Shown here piece after piece: positions 2,864 through 32,399 of a DNA stretch of 49,697 nucleotides; position 1 is the first letter of the stretch, and the number at the start of each line of letters is the position of its first letter. The notes under the pieces are model-generated. The model did not search any database and was not told the origin of the DNA. It saw nothing but the letters and a program-made list of their open reading frames with translations. The stretch is taken from NCBI GenBank assembly GCA_026165385.1, contig GCA_026165385.1_4524.2; one strand, given 5' to 3'. The stretch comes from a phage. Made by a program: the position numbers and the translations under genes.

Positions 2864-2891
2864 AGCCCCTTCCTTACGGTTGGGGCTTTTT
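2864..2891 (+). terminator. Rho-independent terminator
   Basis: Stem AGCCCC (2864-2869) / GGGGCT (2882-2887) followed by a T-run. Confidence 0.6.
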
Positions 2892-2936
2892 GGCATAATA
2901 ATAAATAGATAAGTTAATTAACTTAGGAAAAGCAAC

Positions 2937-3401
2937 ATGAAATCATACGCTGAATTTTTGACTGAACAATCTAGTTCAGATGTAAAAGCCGCTGCGATTG
3001 CAGCAATTCAAGCAGGTAAATATTCTTACAAAGACGCCTCCGATGAAGAACGTTTCCGTTTTATTAGAGATTTTAAAGCCGAAGGTTTTACTAATGCTAA
3101 TACTGTTAGCCGAGTTTTTAAAAGCCTAGCTGCATCAGGTGAATTGTTCCAGAAAGCTACAGGTAAAGCACCTGTGCCAAAAGCGGACCATAAAACAGCT
3201 CAAGAAAAAAATATCGCCAAAGGAATTATTTCTAAGTATGAAGCAATTCTTAAAGAGCTTTTAGTAATCAAAACAGAAGGCCAGAAACTGGCACGAGCAC
3301 ATAGTTTCAAAGATAATCCTCACGCTCATAGCCTTGAGTATGTTGAAGATATCCAAAAACTTATTAAAGACCGCATTTGGTCTGCTAAACAAATCAAATA
3401 A
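2937..3401 (+). CDS. Internal protein-like (capsid-targeted) protein, 154 aa
   Basis: N-terminus MKSYAEFLTE matches the capsid targeting sequence pattern with an L-x-E cleavage-type site; SD AGGAAAAG upstream. Confidence 0.7.
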   Translation: MKSYAEFLTEQSSSDVKAAAIAAIQAGKYSYKDASDEERFRFIRDFKAEGFTNANTVSRVFKSLAASGELFQKATGKAPVPKADHKTAQEKNIAKGIISKYEAILKELLVIKTEGQKLARAHSFKDNPHAHSLEYVEDIQKLIKDRIWSAKQIK

Positions 3402-3408
3402 CATTCTT

Positions 3409-3436
3409 AGCCCCAACCTTTCTGTTGGGGCTTTTT
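3409..3436 (+). terminator. Rho-independent terminator
   Basis: Stem AGCCCCAAC / GTTGGGGCT followed by TTTTT. Confidence 0.6.
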
Positions 3437-13321: not shown

Positions 13322-13636
13322 ATGAAAACGTATAAAGAATTTATTGCAGAATCCGCCAACCAACGCGTTGAAGGTGGTTATATTTGGATTGAACAAGTTG
13401 AGCCACCGAGCCGCACTTCTACAGGTAAATGGAAAATTACTGTTGATGGTCCTGGCGGTAAACGTAGGACTCTTAAAGAAATTAATGGGTACTACGAAGA
13501 AGCTCTTTCGGATGCAGGAACTTACATGATGCAAATCATGATTAAAAACCCTGAAAACCGTTTTGCAGCTAAAGTCTTCCGCCGTATTGGTAATAAACTT
13601 TATGATGCATACTCTAAAAACTTCCCTAAAGAATAA
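13322..13636 (+). CDS. Internal protein-like (capsid-targeted) protein, 104 aa
   Basis: N-terminus MKTYKEFIAES; SD AAGGAAA. Confidence 0.7.
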   Translation: MKTYKEFIAESANQRVEGGYIWIEQVEPPSRTSTGKWKITVDGPGGKRRTLKEINGYYEEALSDAGTYMMQIMIKNPENRFAAKVFRRIGNKLYDAYSKNFPKE

Positions 13637-13661
13637 CATAAATTAAAACAATAGGAACAAA

Positions 13662-13991
13662 ATGAAAACATATCAAGAGTTTATCACTGAAGTTACATTA
13701 TCTGCGGAACAGAAAGCTGCTATCGAAGAAGGTAAAAATCCCAAAGTAACATATAAAGTAAATAGTAAAGGCGTTTTTGATGGCTTGGTTCAAGACCCTG
13801 AATTGAAAAAAGCTCTTTCTAAAACTAATGCGTACTTTGCTCCTAAATTTAACACAGCCGGTGTACTTATTGGATTGGATGTATTCAACTCTAAAGGTGT
13901 TCTATCTAATGCCTTTGGTTATGCCGCTAACAAAATTACCAAAGCCGCATGGGAATCCAATACCAAACAAGCTCAAAAGCCTAGAGTATAA
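13662..13991 (+). CDS. Internal protein-like (capsid-targeted) protein, 109 aa
   Basis: N-terminus MKTYQEFITEV; SD-like TAGGAACAAA. Confidence 0.7.
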   Translation: MKTYQEFITEVTLSAEQKAAIEEGKNPKVTYKVNSKGVFDGLVQDPELKKALSKTNAYFAPKFNTAGVLIGLDVFNSKGVLSNAFGYAANKITKAAWESNTKQAQKPRV

Positions 13992-14163
13992 TTCTTGTCT
14001 AATAAAGGGAAACGCAACCTCTCCTTATGAACGTCGAGTCCTCTGAGTGATGTACCTTTTCCAACCTGTAATAAGGTCGAGCGCAATGCGGTAATGGGTT
14101 TACATAGCGAGTCTAAGGACCTAACATGTGCCATGGAATGGCCCAAACCTTAAGAGAAATAAT

Positions 14164-14703
14164 ATGAGAACATTTTTAACTGGTCCTTATCTATCCCTGA
14201 TGAATGCTTTTACACACCATTCTGATGCTAGAGTAGAAGAAATTTGTAAGAACGGTTATGTCCCACCATTTGAAGACGTACTCAAGCAGTACTGTACACT
14301 TCGTTTAGACGGTGGCAGACAATCAGGTAAATCAATTGCTGTGACTAACTTTGCTGCTAATTGGCTGTATGATGGTGGAACAGTTATTGTTCTTTCTAAT
14401 ACTTCAGCTTATTCTAAAATTTCTGCTGGCAACATTAAAAAAGAATTTTCTCGTTATTCTAGCGACGATATTCGATTCCGTTTATTTACTGATTCTGTTC
14501 GTAGTTTTATTGGCAATGAAGGTTCTAAATTCCGTGGATTAACGCTTTCTCGTATTCTGTATATAATTGACGAGCCTATTAAAGCTCCTGATATGGATAA
14601 GATTTACGACATCCATATTAAAACAGTCCAACACTGTTGCAAAAGCAAATATTGCATCGGCGGTAATGCTCGTCCTCAATTTTTTGTGATTGGAATGCAA
14701 TGA
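14164..14703 (+). CDS. P-loop NTPase-like protein, 179 aa
   Basis: ATG at 14164 after SD AAGAGAAA; Walker A-like DGGRQSGKS and Walker B-like ILYIIDEP. Confidence 0.55.
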   Translation: MRTFLTGPYLSLMNAFTHHSDARVEEICKNGYVPPFEDVLKQYCTLRLDGGRQSGKSIAVTNFAANWLYDGGTVIVLSNTSAYSKISAGNIKKEFSRYSSDDIRFRLFTDSVRSFIGNEGSKFRGLTLSRILYIIDEPIKAPDMDKIYDIHIKTVQHCCKSKYCIGGNARPQFFVIGMQ

Positions 14704-15008
14704 TGACCATTATTGAAGTTTTTGAATATTGTTATAACAGCCCAGTATGCAATAAAAGGGCCCTTGTAGAAAATTACGAGATTTACCATTTTAAACCTAA
14801 ACGATACCGTTTGACTAAAGGTCCTTTCGCAGGGCAGCAGGTTCTTTGTACTGCTCCTAATGCACGGTTGATGACTAGTATTCCGCATTTCAAAATGGAA
14901 TTTATTGATGGGCCATTTAAGGGATTAATCACTCAAAGTTTAATGGCGTTTAATTCCGACCCATTTTTGATTAAAGAAAAAACTTGGATAAATTTATTTT
15001 CTAATTGA
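14700..15008 (+). CDS. Hypothetical protein, 102 aa
   Basis: ATGA overlap with the upstream gene. Confidence 0.55.
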   Translation: MMTIIEVFEYCYNSPVCNKRALVENYEIYHFKPKRYRLTKGPFAGQQVLCTAPNARLMTSIPHFKMEFIDGPFKGLITQSLMAFNSDPFLIKEKTWINLFSN

Positions 15009-15014
15009 GGTTAT

Positions 15015-15377
15015 ATGAAAGCATATCAAATTCTTGAAGGTGCACATAAAGGCACTATTTATTTTGAAGACGGTACTCAAGCCCGGATTATTGTCTCTAA
15101 GACTTTTAAAGAAGACGCTATTGTAGACCCGGAAATTTTCTACGGTTTGAATGCCCGTGAAATTGAAATTGAACATCAACCTAAAGTTAAAATTGAAGGT
15201 GGTCAACATCTGAACGTTAACGTTCTGCGTCGTGAAACTCTAGAAGATGCAGTTAAGCATCCGGAAAAATATCCGCAGCTGACCATCCGTGTATCCGGTT
15301 ATGCAGTTCGCTTTAACTCTCTGACTCCGGAACAGCAGCGCGACGTTATCGCTCGTACCTTTACTGAGAGTCTATAA
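15015..15377 (+). CDS. Autonomous glycyl radical cofactor (GrcA/YfiD-like)
   Basis: C-terminus [60 protein letters not shown] matches the glycyl-radical domain of E. coli GrcA as I recall it; 3' part uses GC-rich host-like codons. Confidence 0.8.
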
Positions 15378-15601
15378 TGGCTAAATTAATTATAGAAGGG
15401 TCTGAAGATGTTTTAAAATGTTTTGCCGCCTGGTTTAGTTGCTCTGGAGAGCAATCATTCACTGAAGCATTTAGAATGGGTGATATTACTGGAAACTATC
15501 CGACAACTGATATCACTGTACGTGGATATGGTATTAATGAGCCTATCCAATTGGTCGAATATGACCTTGCCACCGATGAGGAAATTCCTTATGTCGATTG
15601 A
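15377..15601 (+). CDS. Hypothetical acidic protein, 74 aa
   Basis: ATG overlaps the upstream stop (TAATG). Confidence 0.5.
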   Translation: MAKLIIEGSEDVLKCFAAWFSCSGEQSFTEAFRMGDITGNYPTTDITVRGYGINEPIQLVEYDLATDEEIPYVD

Positions 15602-15836
15602 AGACATCAAAGGCTACAAGCCGCATACCGATGATAAAATCGGTAAAGTGAACGCTATTAAAGATGCAGAAGTTCGTTTAGGACTTATTCTGGACGCCCT
15701 GGCAGAAGAAGCGTTATCAGCAAATACTCCTGAAGCTCTGACGGCTTTGTCCCAACTTAACTGTGCTAAAGAGCGTCTAAAGGAAGCTAGTATGTGGGCT
15801 TGTCGCGCTGTATTTCAGCCTGAGGAAAAATACTAA
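15591..15836 (+). CDS. Hypothetical protein, 81 aa
   Basis: ATG at 15591 after SD GAGGAAA; the track ORF 15423-15836 is an upstream extension overlapping the previous gene. Confidence 0.5.
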   Translation: MSIEDIKGYKPHTDDKIGKVNAIKDAEVRLGLILDALAEEALSANTPEALTALSQLNCAKERLKEASMWACRAVFQPEEKY

Positions 15837-16051
15837 TGGCTTCTACTATTACTGGGTTATTGGACTTCCAAGAAAAGGTCAACAAAATTTGTAGTGAATA
15901 CTTAAAGTATCTTGAAGAAGACCTTGAAGATTGTAAGGAAGAAGGCGAAGAAGACTATGCTGACCAGCGCCGTCGCCAAATCGAAGAGATGAGGCATTTC
16001 GCCAATATGGTATCTAAAGAATCTTGGGCTTTAACTCCATTTTATCAATAA
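15836..16051 (+). CDS. Hypothetical acidic protein, 71 aa
   Basis: TAATG overlap with the upstream gene. Confidence 0.5.
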   Translation: MASTITGLLDFQEKVNKICSEYLKYLEEDLEDCKEEGEEDYADQRRRQIEEMRHFANMVSKESWALTPFYQ

Positions 16052-16055
16052 AGTA

Positions 16056-16104
16056 GTTTACTTCTCCTCTAGTTGTGTTACTATAGACCTGTCAACTAGA
16101 GGAG
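16056..16104 (+). promoter_or_regulatory. Early promoter with inverted repeat whose 3' arm contains the SD
   Basis: GTTTAC 16056-16061; CTCCTCTAGTTG / CAACTAGAGGAG arms flanking TGTTACTATAGA. Confidence 0.5.
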
Positions 16105-16112
16105 AAATCAAA

Positions 16113-16571
16113 ATGACTATCAATTCGGAAGTTTTTATCCGCCGTAATAAACTCCGTCGAATCTTTGAAACGGAGTTCCGCAAAATAAATGCCGGTATAA
16201 AAGATGCTGCAAAGTCTCTTGGACTACCAGGCTTTCATATCAAGTATTCTCAACATCTCTTAGATCGTGCCATCCAGAGAGAAATAGATGAGAATTACGT
16301 TTTTGAATTATTTCGTAAAGTAAAAAATCATGTTAAAGAAGTTACAGAATTTTTATCAATGCCGGCACGTCCAGATGTTGATGAAGATTTTGTCGAAGGT
16401 GTCGAATACCGTCCAGGCCGTTTAGAAATAACTGATGGAAATCTTTGGTTAGGACTTACAGTTTGTCGCGAAAATCCAGCATTCAAAATGAAGACTCTTC
16501 AATGCAGAATGGCTATTATTAACAGTAAACGACTACCAGGAAAAGCTTCTAAAGCAGTGATTAAAATCTAG
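16113..16571 (+). CDS. regB: RegB-like sequence-specific endoribonuclease
   Basis: 152 aa starting MTINSEVFIRRNKLRR, matching my recollection of T4 RegB; location between denV and tk as in T4. Confidence 0.65.
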   Translation: MTINSEVFIRRNKLRRIFETEFRKINAGIKDAAKSLGLPGFHIKYSQHLLDRAIQREIDENYVFELFRKVKNHVKEVTEFLSMPARPDVDEDFVEGVEYRPGRLEITDGNLWLGLTVCRENPAFKMKTLQCRMAIINSKRLPGKASKAVIKI

Positions 16572-23462: not shown

Positions 23463-23599
23463 GCTTATAGGAAGTTCTGAGGTAACAAAAGCCATAAAGA
23501 TGAATAATCATATGGCTTACCTCAAAGAAGGACACCAGGAACCTACTGAGGGCATAGAAAATTTAAAAATAATGATGTACAAATCAAAGAGGATATGTT

Positions 23600-23887
23600 A
23601 TGGATTTTATGCAAAAAATTAAAGCCGCAGTAGAACTGTATGCTCATCGTATGGTTAGTTCTACAATGCAATATAGCGAGGAGGTTCGCCAGGACTCTTC
23701 CTTGAAAGGAAAAACTAAAGCCTTAATTACCTTAGATCGTTTGCAAAAGAATGCCATAGAGATGCTCCAGTACGACAAGGGTGTATATAAGAAAGAACAG
23801 GAAGAGAAACTTAAATCTGAAAAATTACAAAAAATCCCGAAGTCGGTTTGGTTCAGTGGAAAAAATACCGAAAAAAGTTTCTTTTAG
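23600..23887 (+). CDS. Hypothetical protein, 95 aa
   Basis: SD AAGAGGA 6 nt before the ATG. Confidence 0.55.
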   Translation: MDFMQKIKAAVELYAHRMVSSTMQYSEEVRQDSSLKGKTKALITLDRLQKNAIEMLQYDKGVYKKEQEEKLKSEKLQKIPKSVWFSGKNTEKSFF

Positions 23888-29183: not shown

Positions 29184-29609
29184 ATGAATATTTCTGAAAC
29201 TCGCGGTAAATGGTTCAAGATTGTTAAAGAAGATGAAGAACTACAAGTCAAGTTTCCTGAATTAAAGAAAGATACAATCATCAAGGTAATTGGTACTACG
29301 ACCGAAGATGGTTATGGCGACCATGGCATTATTGAAGTGATGTTGAACACTGGTGAGAAACTTTGCATCTATGACCGTGATACTTCTCTTTGGTGCTTCT
29401 GGGAATCACATTCAATAGATGAACTCGAAGAAATTGATTCGGCCGATATTGCGGATGTGCTAGGTAGTAAACTTGGCGAATTCGAAGGTGAACGAATTTC
29501 TTATGCATTAGCTAAATTAGCCGGACAAGAAAATAACGACGGCTATGAAGGTAACCTGATGCAAGCAGCCGCAGAATACATTGAATATTTAGAAAGACGT
29601 TTAAGTTAA
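29184..29609 (+). CDS. Hypothetical acidic protein, 141 aa
   Basis: ATG at 29184 right after the previous stop; the track ORF 29046-29609 is a 5' extension. Confidence 0.55.
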   Translation: MNISETRGKWFKIVKEDEELQVKFPELKKDTIIKVIGTTTEDGYGDHGIIEVMLNTGEKLCIYDRDTSLWCFWESHSIDELEEIDSADIADVLGSKLGEFEGERISYALAKLAGQENNDGYEGNLMQAAAEYIEYLERRLS

Positions 29610-29644: not shown

Positions 29645-30118
29645 ATGTTATTATCAGGCGCAAAATATAAAGAAGAAAAACAAAAATTTTATGATGCACA
29701 GAACGGTAAGTGTCCTATTTGCCACCGTGAATTAGACCCTGATGTTCAAGGTAACCATCTTGACCACGACCATGAATTAAACGGGCCAAAAGCTGGTAAG
29801 GTTCGTGGGTTACTCTGTTCTCTGTGCAACGCAGCAGAAGGTCAAATGAAGCATAAGTTCAACCGTTCTGGTCTTAAAGGTCGTGATGTCGACTACCTCG
29901 AATGGCTTGAAGCTCTTCTTGCTTATTTGAAACAAGATTATTCTGCTAATAATATCCATCCTAATTTTGTTCCAGACAAAACTAAAGAGTTCTCAAGACT
30001 AGGTAAAGAGGAAATGATGGTCGAGATGCTTCAAAGAGGATTTGAATATAATGAATCTGATACTAAAACACAATTAATAGCTTCATTCAAAAAGCAGCTT
30101 AGAAAGAGTTTAAAATGA
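29645..30118 (+). CDS. 49: Endonuclease VII (Holliday junction resolvase, gp49)
   Basis: 157 aa starting MLLSGAKYKEEKQKFYDAQNGKCPICHREL with HLDHDHELNGPKAGKVRGLLC motif; close match to T4 endo VII as I recall it. Confidence 0.95.
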   Translation: MLLSGAKYKEEKQKFYDAQNGKCPICHRELDPDVQGNHLDHDHELNGPKAGKVRGLLCSLCNAAEGQMKHKFNRSGLKGRDVDYLEWLEALLAYLKQDYSANNIHPNFVPDKTKEFSRLGKEEMMVEMLQRGFEYNESDTKTQLIASFKKQLRKSLK

Positions 30119-31932
30119 AAATTGAAAAAGAAATTGAAGGATTAATTCATAAAACTAATAAAGATCTTTTGAACGAGAATGCTAATAAAGATTCTCGTGT
30201 TTTTCCAACTCAACGGGACCTTATGGCTGGTATTGTGTCTAAGCACATTGCCAAAAATATGGTCCCGTCTTTTATTATGAATGCGCATGAAAGCGGAATC
30301 ATTCACATGCATGATATTGATTATTCTCCTGCTCTTCCATTTACTAATTGCTGTTTAGTAGATTTAAAAGGAATGCTTGAGAACGGATTTAAGCTTGGTA
30401 ATGCACAGATTGAAACTCCTAAATCAATTGGCGTTGCTACTGCAATTATGGCACAAATTACCGCGCAAGTTGCTTCACACCAGTATGGCGGAACTACATT
30501 TGCGAATGTCGATAAAGTTCTTTCTCCTTATGTTAAACGCACATACGCTAAACATGTTGAAGATGCAGAAAAATGGCAAATACCAGACATTCTGAATTAT
30601 GCTCAATCTAAAACAGAAAAAGATGTCTATGACGCATTCCAAGCTTATGAATATGAAGTAAATACTCTCTTTAGTTCAAACGGACAAACTCCTTTTGTAA
30701 CAATTACATTTGGTACGGGAACCGATTGGACTGAACGAATGATTCAGAAGGCAATTCTTAAAAACCGCATTAAAGGTCTTGGTCGTGATGGAATAACTCC
30801 TATTTTTCCTAAACTTGTTATGTTTGTTGAAGAAGGTGTTAATCTTTATAAAGATGATCCGAACTATGATATTAAGCAGCTTGCTCTAGAGTGCGCAAGC
30901 AAAAGAATGTATCCTGATATTATTTCGGTTAAGAATAATAAAGCTATTACCGGTTCTTCAGTTCCTGTTTCTCCGATGGGTTGCCGTAGTTTCTTGAGCG
31001 TATGGAAAGATTCGACTGGTAATGAAATTCTTGATGGACGTAATAATCTTGGTGTTGTAACACTGAATCTTCCTCGTATTGCGTTAGATTCTTATATTGG
31101 AACACAGTTCAATGAACAGAAATTTGTTGAGCTATTTAACGAACGAATGGACCTGTGTTTTGAAGCTTTGATGTGTAGAATTAGTTCCTTAAAAGGAGTT
31201 AAAGCTACTGTTGCTCCTATTCTTTACCAAGAAGGTGCATTCGGGGTTCGTCTTAAACCTGATGATGACATAATTGAGTTATTTAAAAATGGTAGAAGTT
31301 CAGTGTCCCTAGGATACATTGGTATTCACGAATTGAATATTCTTGTCGGTCGTGATATTGGACAAGAAATTTTAACTAAAATGAATGCTCATCTTAAACA
31401 GTGGACTGAAAGAACCGGATTTGCTTTTAGTTTATATTCTACTCCTGCTGAAAACCTTTGTTATCGCTTCTGTAAACTCGATACAGAAAAATACGGAAAT
31501 GTAAAGGATGTTACCGATAAAGGCTGGTACACTAACAGTTTCCATGTTTCAGTAGAAGAAAATATTACTCCGTTTGAAAAGATTTCTCGTGAAGCGCCAT
31601 ATCATTTCATTGCGACAGGTGGTCACATTTCTTATGTTGAACTTCCTGATATGAAAAATAACTTAAAGGGCCTTGAGGCTGTATGGGATTATGCTGCACA
31701 ACATTTAGATTATTTTGGTGTTAATATGCCAGTAGATAAATGTTTTACATGCGGAAGTACTCATGAAATGACTCCTACTGAAAATGGATTTGTTTGTTCA
31801 GTTTGCGGAGAAACTGATCCTAAAAAGATGAACACAATAAGAAGAACATGCGGTTATTTGGGAAATCCAAACGAACGCGGATTTAATCTAGGCAAAAATA
31901 AAGAAATCATGCATAGGGTTAAACACCAATGA
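30115..31932 (+). CDS. nrdD: Anaerobic ribonucleoside-triphosphate reductase NrdD
   Basis: 605 aa; C-terminal glycyl radical motif RRTCGYLG and zinc ribbon CFTCGS...CSVCGE; uninterrupted ORF (no intron). Confidence 0.95.
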   Translation: MKIEKEIEGLIHKTNKDLLNENANKDSRVFPTQRDLMAGIVSKHIAKNMVPSFIMNAHESGIIHMHDIDYSPALPFTNCCLVDLKGMLENGFKLGNAQIETPKSIGVATAIMAQITAQVASHQYGGTTFANVDKVLSPYVKRTYAKHVEDAEKWQIPDILNYAQSKTEKDVYDAFQAYEYEVNTLFSSNGQTPFVTITFGTGTDWTERMIQKAILKNRIKGLGRDGITPIFPKLVMFVEEGVNLYKDDPNYDIKQLALECASKRMYPDIISVKNNKAITGSSVPVSPMGCRSFLSVWKDSTGNEILDGRNNLGVVTLNLPRIALDSYIGTQFNEQKFVELFNERMDLCFEALMCRISSLKGVKATVAPILYQEGAFGVRLKPDDDIIELFKNGRSSVSLGYIGIHELNILVGRDIGQEILTKMNAHLKQWTERTGFAFSLYSTPAENLCYRFCKLDTEKYGNVKDVTDKGWYTNSFHVSVEENITPFEKISREAPYHFIATGGHISYVELPDMKNNLKGLEAVWDYAAQHLDYFGVNMPVDKCFTCGSTHEMTPTENGFVCSVCGETDPKKMNTIRRTCGYLGNPNERGFNLGKNKEIMHRVKHQ

Positions 31933-32399
31933 ATTATGATAGATTTTATCCTTGCGATTTTGTGAATGGCCCTGGTTGCAGGGTCGTTCTTTTCGTTACA
32001 GGTTGTTTGCATAAATGTGAAGGGTGTTATAATAAATCAACATGGAATGCTAGAAATGGTGTTCCATTCACCGGTGAAACACTAGAACAATTAATTGAAT
32101 GTTTGAATAATGATTATATAGAAGGATTAACTATAACCGGAGGTGACCCTCTCTATCCTGATAACCGAGATGTTATTCATCGCATTGCTCAAACAGTAAA
32201 AAATCTTTATCCCAATAAAAGCATTTGGTTGTGGACAGGATATAAGTTTGAAGATATTAAACAACTAGAAATGCTTAAATATGTTGATGTTATTATTGAT
32301 GGGAAGTATGAGAAAAATCTTCCGACTAAAAAGCTGTGGCGAGGATCAGATAATCAGCGACTTTGGTCAAATACCGATGGGGTGTGGAAACATGATTAA
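31929..32399 (+). CDS. nrdG: Anaerobic RNR activating protein NrdG (radical SAM)
   Basis: Radical SAM cysteine motif GCLHKCEGCYN; ATGA overlap with nrdD. Confidence 0.9.
   Translation: MNYDRFYPCDFVNGPGCRVVLFVTGCLHKCEGCYNKSTWNARNGVPFTGETLEQLIECLNNDYIEGLTITGGDPLYPDNRDVIHRIAQTVKNLYPNKSIWLWTGYKFEDIKQLEMLKYVDVIIDGKYEKNLPTKKLWRGSDNQRLWSNTDGVWKHD

Follow-up and report, generated by a model that had tools for sequence, protein, structure and literature searches.

The DNA studied here is a phage sequence of 49,697 nucleotides (contig GCA_026165385.1_4524.2 of GenBank assembly GCA_026165385.1). This whole 49.7-kb stretch is called the window below. It is collinear with Escherichia phage RB69 (Mosigvirus, Straboviridae), with 95–98% identity in blast comparison. 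At 15015–15377 of the plus strand, on which all vs.6 coordinates are given, the window contains an open reading frame (ORF) running from ATG to TAA and encoding 120 amino acids plus the stop. At the nucleotide level the ORF is 98.6% identical to vs.6 of RB69; for several Mosigvirus isolates of more recent date the value is 99.7%, and many related Mosigvirus records label the gene "autonomous glycyl radical cofactor". The gene order vs.8-vs.7-vs.6-vs.5, on the same strand inside the denV-regB-tk early region, matches the annotation of both RB69 and T4. The position between vs.7 and vs.5 and the full-length identity to Vs.6 of T4 and RB69 assign the gene to the T4 vs.6 orthologous group. Based on orthology and a Gly_radical domain match, the ORF is identified as vs.6 of an RB69-like Mosigvirus, the orthologue of T4 Vs.6/Y06I and a 120-residue homologue of GrcA/YfiD, which serves as a phage autonomous glycyl-radical cofactor.

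The coding sequence is divided into three parts. Codons 1–60 (15015–15194) are the phage-lineage 5' half, corresponding to a diverged, AT-rich GrcA N-terminal region. Codons 61–117 (15195–15365), which encode the structured glycyl-radical domain, are a host-derived patch. Codons 118–120 (GAG AGT CTA) and the stop codon TAA (15366–15377) are a phage-type tail. The glycyl-radical motif RVSGYAV, recognized from the translation and the alignment to YfiD and PflB, occupies residues 92–98 (15288–15308), and the codon of the radical glycine, G95, is at 15297–15299. The explanation which we consider highly probable is that vs.6 is a T4-family gene for a spare glycyl-radical protein, the 3' patch of which was converted from host grcA, and that such conversion recurs with the host genus.

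The last 60 residues of the window protein, ending with TESL, are identical to residues 68–127 of E. coli GrcA. A first-pass annotation, made from the letters of the window alone, had described a mosaic GrcA-like gene with a host-like 3' half. The mosaic is clearly seen in the nucleotide alignment: 169 of the 171 bases of codons 61–117 are the same as in E. coli grcA, while about 51% of the aligned bases in codons 1–60 are mismatched. The match to GrcA was noted correctly there, although its length had been given as about 65 residues instead of 60. Codon alignment of the last 180 coding bases reveals five differences from E. coli grcA, all of them synonymous. Three are in the phage-type tail, and the two inside the patch, T for C at 15209 and A for G at 15242, are both GC-to-AT changes. 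In blastn, 15147–15377 matches grcA at 90.9% identity in all of the 5,426 complete E. coli genomes. The maximum chi-square test places the breakpoint after 15192, with 90 mismatches in 178 sites to the left and 5 in 182 to the right (permutation p ≤ 2 × 10^-4). The host-like tract postulated in the first-pass annotation is thus present, but it starts about 13–15 bases further right than the proposed position of about 15180. The same breakpoint (gene nucleotides 178–180) is found in the window, T4 and Klebsiella phage pKp20.

When the window was compared with the 5,426 E. coli genomes by megablast, the sole match was 15193–15388, to grcA and more weakly to pflB; the region 24800–49697 had no match in this search. 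At the DNA level the patch is 99% identical to grcA and 78.7% identical to pflB, and therefore the donor is grcA, not pflB. In some blast hits the match extends beyond the stop codon to 15388. This extension is a short gapped match (TAA-GGCT vs TAATGGCT) and was judged to be due to chance.

The base composition of the gene is not uniform. The GC content of the patch is 0.485 (5' half, 0.350; whole window, 0.371), and the patch falls in the top 0.24% of all 171-nucleotide segments (z = 3.1). CTG accounts for 4 of 5 Leu codons in the patch versus 143 of 1182 elsewhere in the window, and CCG for 3 of 3 Pro codons versus 67 of 442. The GC-rich 3' half with host-preferred codons, which had been noticed in the first reading, is therefore real. 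Its value as evidence is smaller, however. The GC content at third codon positions of the patch (0.386, z = 1.2) is unremarkable, and phage lineages without host-like identity also show a GC-richer 3' half; composition is therefore only suggestive. The decisive evidence for the host origin is the nucleotide identity, to which composition is only supporting. On this evidence, the 3' half of vs.6 can be regarded as host-derived and recent.

Comparison with other lineages sheds light on whether protein constraint could account for this identity. RB16 encodes the same amino acids as E. coli GrcA over codons 61–117 (nonsynonymous divergence, dN, 0), but its synonymous divergence (dS) from E. coli is 1.58, which means saturation. 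KMB19 and T5-like phages are likewise synonymously saturated against E. coli over the patch. These facts indicate that protein constraint does not preserve synonymous sites. The dS between the window and E. coli over the patch is only 0.048 (2 synonymous differences in 43 sites), and that between T4 and E. coli is 0. The corresponding values between E. coli and other bacteria are 0.38 for Citrobacter, 0.60 for K. pneumoniae and 1.13 for Salmonella. Over the last 180 nucleotides, the phage sequences are 97–98% identical to E. coli and about 90% identical to the next genus, while E. coli and Citrobacter are 92.8% identical to each other. In the neighbour-joining tree of the 171-nucleotide patch, Escherichia and the T4/Mosigvirus sequences are grouped in 98% of bootstraps, and a phage-only clade is recovered in 0%. 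The proposal of a recent host-to-phage transfer of the 3' half is well borne out by these low dS values and this grouping.

The dS between T4 and the window is 0.048 for the patch, 0.39 for the 5' half, and 0.64 to >1.9 for the neighbouring genes. Since the dS of the patch is far below that of the flanks, the patch is much younger than the split of the two phage genera. The host-type codons and the GC-to-AT changes on the phage side indicate that the transfer, as read from the alignments, was from host to phage. vs.6 thus has a supported breakpoint, synonymous identity beyond constraint, and a donor which differs between phages of different hosts, as described below. The sequence comparison shows that codons 61–117 were recently overwritten by the chromosomal grcA of the host, apparently via homologous recombination (gene conversion), and that the 5' half has evolved within the phage lineage. 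T4-type phages have very active homologous recombination, and exchange with any homologous DNA that the infected cell contains occurs easily in them. The window encodes gp46/47.

Both ends of the converted tract are informative. At the left end, the tract starts at the first codon of a near-invariant block, and upstream of it the similarity between phage and host collapses. At the right end, the last three codons of the window gene are GAG AGT CTA, compared with GAA AGC CTG in E. coli. RB16 and Matisse have the same state as the window here, which identifies these codons as ancestral phage DNA. Annotations of related phages place the ribosome-binding site of the following gene within the last three codons of vs.6, and the tail probably has a role in translational coupling with vs.5. 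Just past the vs.6 stop, the phage and host sequences are unrelated. The tract would cover the stretch in which strong protein conservation has left enough DNA similarity between phage and host for recombination. It would end before the last three codons, where the ribosome-binding region of vs.5 and its overlapping start are located. The limits of the tract were thus presumably set by the available homology and by a phage translation signal which was left untouched.

In its 5' half, too, vs.6 is related to GrcA. Two alignments of N-terminal halves, one from 12 phage homologues (T4-like, T5-like, Aeromonas and Vibrio phages) and the other from 10 bacterial GrcA proteins, were compared by hhalign. 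They match with a probability of 97% and an E-value of 7.7e-11 over 60 aligned columns, collinear from end to end. With phmmer, residues 21–120 of the window protein align to residues 27–127 of YfiD. The first 60 residues alone show a marginal match to the GrcA profile (E-value 0.054) and no Pfam domain. T4-like lineages share a conserved N-terminal half, and it is under purifying selection, with dN 0.055 and dS 0.39 (dN/dS about 0.14) for the 5' half between T4 and the window. Phage lineages without recent host similarity share the same two-part architecture, and therefore a full-length phage grcA homologue predates the patch. By these alignments, vs.6 is an old full-length phage homologue of grcA, part of which was replaced by the host patch; it is not a fusion. 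The suggestion in the first-pass annotation that the host segment was fused to a phage N-terminus does not hold, as the N-terminal 60 residues are homologous to and collinear with the N-terminus of GrcA.

A separate observation concerns the synonymous divergence of the 5' half. The value of 0.39 between T4 and the window is lower than those of the neighbours vs.8, vs.7, regB, tk and rI.1 (0.64 to >1.9), and vs.5 and vs are synonymously saturated between the two phages. The 5' flank of vs.6 may have been exchanged between phages together with the patch.

The donor of the patch differs between phages of different hosts. Within the last 180 nucleotides, 21 positions at which grcA of E. coli and K. 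pneumoniae differ were used as diagnostic sites. The E. coli base is present at all 21 sites in the window and also at all 21 in T4. In Klebsiella phage pKp20 (Jiaodavirus), 18 of the 21 are as in K. pneumoniae, including the codons of two Klebsiella-specific amino acids. The phage-type 5' half of pKp20 is 74% identical to that of the window, and the GC content of its 3' half is 0.57. Its 3' segment is 96.0% identical to grcA of K. pneumoniae, 92% to that of K. aerogenes and 86% to that of E. coli.

The same is seen on a larger scale in a collection of 50,697 phage records searched with host grcA. Nucleotides 200–384 of E. coli grcA are at least 95% identical to 639 phage records, none of which covers more than 48% of the gene. 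E. coli grcA also matches 106 records at 80–90% identity, and among the matches listed these are Klebsiella phages. With K. pneumoniae grcA the situation is reversed: 106 records match at 95–99%, being Klebsiella phages among the matches listed, and 527 records match at 80–90%, being E. coli-type phages (isolates from Escherichia, Shigella, Yersinia and Salmonella) among those listed. The full-length hits of E. coli grcA among the matches listed start at grcA nucleotides 199–202, and nearly all listed matches of K. pneumoniae grcA start at nucleotides 200–202. Two phage contigs in IMG/VR, one with a 5' half like that of the window and the other with one like that of T4, have patches identical to E. 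coli grcA at 171 of 171 bases. Escherichia phages (Tequatrovirus and Mosigvirus) thus carry an Escherichia-type patch and Klebsiella phages (Jiaodavirus) a Klebsiella-type patch with the same left boundary. Judging from these sequences, at least two donor genera, Escherichia and Klebsiella, are required.

Variation inside Jiaodavirus is also of interest. In four phages of this genus (L084, L100, L101 and L102), the 5' halves are 98–100% identical and the patches only 93–98% identical, with one amino-acid sequence encoded by all four. Of the variant bases in the patches, several match the states of K. aerogenes. Purifying selection on a gene passed on vertically would leave the patch less variable than the 5' half; the opposite pattern seen here points to more than one conversion. 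The alignment suggests separate conversions from different Klebsiella species.

A patch from a third host genus was sought with Salmonella grcA and was rejected: the query gave only 80–90% matches, to phages with the E. coli-type patch.

The protein features agree with a spare glycyl-radical protein. The Pfam domain PF01228 (Gly_radical) is detected in Vs.6 with 67.3 bits against a cut-off of 22.2, and NCBIfam TIGR04365 ("spare_glycyl") aligns residues 18–120 to profile positions 23–126. The best match among solved structures is E. coli YfiD (PDB 6owr, E-value 2e-42), and the next is PflB, residues 696–759 of which match the C-terminal 64 residues of Vs.6 (57–120) with an E-value of 3e-26. RVSGYAV is intact, and G95 corresponds to G102 of YfiD and G734 of PflB; the position of the radical glycine follows PMC8683613. 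As expected for the GrcA/YfiD family, Vs.6 is a small free-standing glycyl-radical protein (13.6 kDa) with the glycine of RVSGYAV and a homologous N-terminal region. According to the summary of Wagner et al. 2001 given by Andorfer et al. 2021 (PMC8683613), the activating enzyme of pyruvate formate-lyase (PFL), PFL-AE, installs the glycyl radical on YfiD and on T4 Y06I, and the activated proteins restore the activity of PFL cleaved by O2. The T4 homolog mentioned in the first reading is accordingly this Y06I, the product of vs.6, which has the proposed function and is identical to the window protein at 112 of 120 residues.

The function in the window phage is likely the same, by analogy with this close and biochemically characterised T4 orthologue. 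In this scheme, the host activase PflA would install the radical on Gly95 of Vs.6. Vs.6 would then dock on host pyruvate formate-lyase whose C-terminal radical domain was cut off by oxygen. The conversion of pyruvate into acetyl-CoA and formate would thereby be restored, so that infected cells could again gain energy by fermentation under microaerobic conditions. It can be speculated that the patch is kept because an exact match to the interface of host PFL and its activase is advantageous.

The host tracking described above could mean that the 3' half of vs.6 in Tevenvirinae is a standing hotspot of gene conversion, overwritten repeatedly by grcA of the current enterobacterial host. We lean towards this idea by a small degree only. 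If it is true, strictly lytic phages that degrade host DNA keep a segment of 171 nucleotides at 97–100% identity to the current host, and the segment is a built-in record of the recent host genus.

Several points weigh against the proposed conversion and its recurrence. Many conversions, or few conversions followed by phage-to-phage spread, fit the data alike, and for T4 and Mosigvirus one event with an Escherichia donor, passed on by recombination among phages, would be a sufficient explanation too. The clade of Klebsiella sequences has a bootstrap value of only 50% on 171 nucleotides. Host tracking has exceptions: no phage among the 50,697 records is more than 90% identical to Salmonella grcA, and the E. 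coli-type patch is also present in Tequatrovirus isolated from Yersinia, Salmonella and Proteus. In Slopekvirus, Karamvirus, Pseudotevenvirus, Krischvirus, T5-like, Aeromonas and Vibrio phages, the 3' halves are 58–84% identical to any of the bacterial grcA in a sample of about 85 genes. Recombination of a T4-type phage with the host chromosome at vs.6 is drawn from general T4 genetics, and the activity of RB69-type Vs.6 is an extrapolation from T4 Y06I. Besides, the curated equivalog cut-off of TIGR04365 is 170 bits; E. coli GrcA reaches 233.9, but Vs.6 only 159.1, because its N-terminal half is divergent.

Among the alternatives, the one closest to the data is that a host-derived patch arose once and then spread among co-infecting T4-like phages by phage-to-phage recombination. 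T4 and the window belong to different genera and share a nearly identical patch (dS 0.048), T4-like phages are generally known to exchange segments in co-infection, and the Tequatrovirus isolates from Yersinia, Salmonella and Proteus still have the patch of E. coli type. A single event, however, cannot supply both the Escherichia and the Klebsiella donor. It is also hard to reconcile with the finding that phages differing in their 5' halves have patches 98–100% identical to E. coli alleles of today, or with Jiaodavirus, where variation is greater in the patch than in the 5' half and includes several K. aerogenes states. This scenario is possible but rather doubtful. An origin without any recombination, in which the gene was acquired whole long ago and its 3' half stayed host-like through purifying or codon-level selection, is very improbable. 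It would be in line with the near invariance of the C-terminal 60 residues in all phage and bacterial homologues and with the somewhat GC-richer 3' half in every lineage, but RB16 has the same peptide with dN 0 and dS 1.58, and the other lineages are saturated as well. Moreover, the distance from E. coli is smaller for the patches of the window and T4 than for Citrobacter, and Klebsiella phages have the Klebsiella-specific synonymous states. Even less credit is given to an assembly or contamination artefact, by which host reads were merged into the phage assembly. The patch is indeed nearly identical to the DNA of a propagation host, but a mosaic with identical boundaries is found in the 639 phage records, which were sequenced independently and include T4 and RB69 from the Sanger era, and also in IMG/VR contigs. 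Phage-specific sequences flank the tract, which is in frame with them and has substitutions on the phage side.

The sharp change of composition and identity at 15192–15195 could also be read as the joint of a chimeric protein, a 3' fragment of host grcA fused to an unrelated phage-specific N-terminus, and the marginal profile match of the 60-residue N-terminus alone, with no Pfam domain, would fit. The profile-profile match of phage and bacterial N-termini (97%, 7.7e-11), collinear over the whole length, contradicts this, as do the phmmer alignment from residue 21 to the end and the same architecture in patch-free phage lineages; such a fusion is unlikely in the extreme sense that only a slim chance is left to it. 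About as slim is the chance that Vs.6 is a spare glycyl-radical domain for NrdD, the anaerobic ribonucleotide reductase of the phage itself, rather than for host PFL. Nolan et al. 2006 proposed, from the Gly_radical match, that the protein takes part in nucleotide metabolism. Both nrdD (30115–31932) and nrdG (31929–32399) are present in the window, about 15 kb away from vs.6, and in Aeromonas phage phiAS5 the homologue (L095:401-778) lies directly between nrdG and nrdC/nrdH. Vs.6 nevertheless shows no detectable similarity to the NrdD of the window (E-value 6.2), its C-terminal 64 residues match residues 696–759 of PflB, and T4 Y06I is, in the account given in PMC8683613, reported to act on PFL with PFL-AE. 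The link to NrdD and NrdG supposed in the first-pass annotation is thus right as to the presence of both genes and weak as to function. Conversion of the 3' patch of an old phage gene by host grcA is the explanation retained here.

The neighbours of vs.6 are closely packed. The upstream gene vs.7 (14700–15008, plus strand; ORF list and annotation) is phage-specific and has no E. coli match by megablast. A Shine-Dalgarno-like GAGG at 15007–15010 of the plus strand, read from the letters, is placed 4 nucleotides upstream of the vs.6 ATG and overlaps the vs.7 stop codon (15006–15008); it presumably serves translation of vs.6. The downstream gene vs.5 (15377–15601, plus strand) marks the right-hand limit of host homology, and its start codon (15377–15379) overlaps the vs.6 stop as TAATG. 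A scan of 13600–16200 for promoters and terminators gave the same counts as shuffled sequence, with nothing specific to vs.6. The collinear blast blocks with RB69 are interrupted at about 2891–3424, 15683–15756, 23463–23639 and 29602–29609 of the window. These breaks are small insertions, deletions or replacements, one of them just downstream of vs.5/vs.4.

The GrcA family is found in 1,589 phage records by protein search, and some of its members deserve separate mention. The vs.6 homologue of Morganella phage vB_MmoM_MP1 (L118:2658-2840, minus strand; an IMG/VR copy) has a PflB-like C-terminal half (MNREMLLEAMEDPTKYPQ...KEQQ). In a comparison made without a Morganella genome, the best DNA matches of this 3' half, at about 82%, are pflB genes (E. 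coli pflB). It may be a patch from a paralogous host donor. The glycyl-radical half of phiAS5 is the most divergent of the set, with 58–63% identity to bacterial grcA. T5-like phages (Tequintavirus, contigs of 104–121 kb; L091, L092 and many IMG/VR loci such as L104, L114 and L119) and some jumbo-phage contigs of 345–357 kb (L133, L157 and L173) encode GrcA-like proteins as well. These have differing N-termini and no host-like nucleotide identity (about 76–81%). In L177, a 173-kb IMG/VR contig, the vs.6 homologue stops three codons early (…RTFT*), which could be either a real truncation or a sequencing error.

Some database entries encountered here need caution. Several PLSDB "plasmid" records, among them L096 (CP125156.1), L098 and L099, are whole chromosomes or fragments of them, and Klebsiella host grcA was obtained through this mislabelling. 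Such mislabelled "plasmids" include the 5.37-Mb K. pneumoniae "plasmid unnamed2", a 4.1-Mb record of Proteus mirabilis and a 4.9-Mb record of Aeromonas caviae. grcA of K. aerogenes NCTC10006 (L097:300-684) is annotated as a truncated coding sequence of 324 nucleotides and has one extra A in a homopolymer (GAAAAAATACC). Deletion of the extra A restores full-length K. aerogenes GrcA, and the extra A is probably an error of long-read assembly. "Viral" contigs with bacterial genes are seen in IMG/VR (L115, L111, L122, L124, L140, L145 and L178). L115 contains a full bacterial grcA with the N-terminus MITGIQITK and 91% identity to Yersinia over the patch, and several others have pflB C-termini. These contigs are probably host flanks or misclassified.

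The vs.6 gene and its biochemical role are already known as textbook T4 material, and its annotation adds nothing new. No description of the nucleotide-level mosaic or of the host tracking was found in the literature searched, which did not extend to key older sources, so that a prior mention is possible. The conversion patch, locked to its boundaries and tracking the host, is apparently an undescribed evolutionary detail of moderate interest. With it, intragenic exchange of DNA between a lytic T4-type phage and the chromosome of its host can be quantified, and the donor changes with the host genus. vs.6 is a natural and easily assayed locus for measuring homologous recombination between phage and host in T4-like phages, and the patch may mark the recent host of uncultured Tevenvirinae contigs. 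While borrowing the catalytic domain of the host, the phages retain an N-terminal region of their own, the region that YfiD requires for installation of the radical. There is also a practical aspect. A 2026 paper (PMC12845203) chose grcA as a core marker of Straboviridae for typing E. coli phages by polymerase chain reaction (PCR) and quantitative PCR. The conserved half of this gene is 97–100% identical to E. coli DNA, and primers placed there could therefore amplify host DNA.

The closest known system is Vs.6/Y06I of T4. It also has 120 amino acids and is encoded between vs.7 and vs.5, and its gene is the same kind of mosaic, with the breakpoint at the same place. Seven of the eight amino-acid differences from the window protein are in the N-terminal half. 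The patches differ slightly from each other: that of the window has two synonymous changes from E. coli, and that of T4 has one non-synonymous change, R73H.

E. coli GrcA (YfiD, 6owr) shares with the phage protein the block of residues 61–120 (GrcA 68–127) with near-identical DNA, a collinear N-terminus and RVSGYAV. The phage Vs.6 is 7 residues shorter, and its N-terminal 60 residues are only about 30% identical to GrcA and are without the invariant motifs NSFWLLD and ARC-CAK. In YfiD, the N-terminal region is disordered and is needed for radical installation by PFL-AE. The genomic contexts are different, vs.6 being in a phage early-gene cluster and grcA of E. coli in the ung-grcA neighbourhood. 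The C-terminal glycyl-radical domain of PflB is a further relative. Residues 57–120 of Vs.6 correspond to residues 696–759 of PflB, the part which is removed or disabled by oxygen cleavage, but Vs.6 is a free-standing protein of 13.6 kDa, unlike the C-terminal domain of PflB.

The exchange itself is comparable to that of the photosynthesis genes psbA and psbD in cyanophages. Intragenic recombination of these genes between phage and host was reportedly also described by Zeidner in 2005. For T4-like cyanophages and their Synechococcus and Prochlorococcus hosts, intragenic recombination of psbA and psbD was recognized from patchy GC content and recombination tests (Sullivan et al. 2006, PMC1484495). 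vs.6 differs from psbA and psbD in having one fixed pair of boundaries, in being exchanged over the conserved domain only, in its 97–100% identity to the current host, and in belonging to lytic phages of enterobacteria; for vs.6, only the host-to-phage direction is supported. What the two systems have in common is a host-derived metabolic gene in T4-like myoviruses, with patchy GC content, exchanged segments and clustering by host range.

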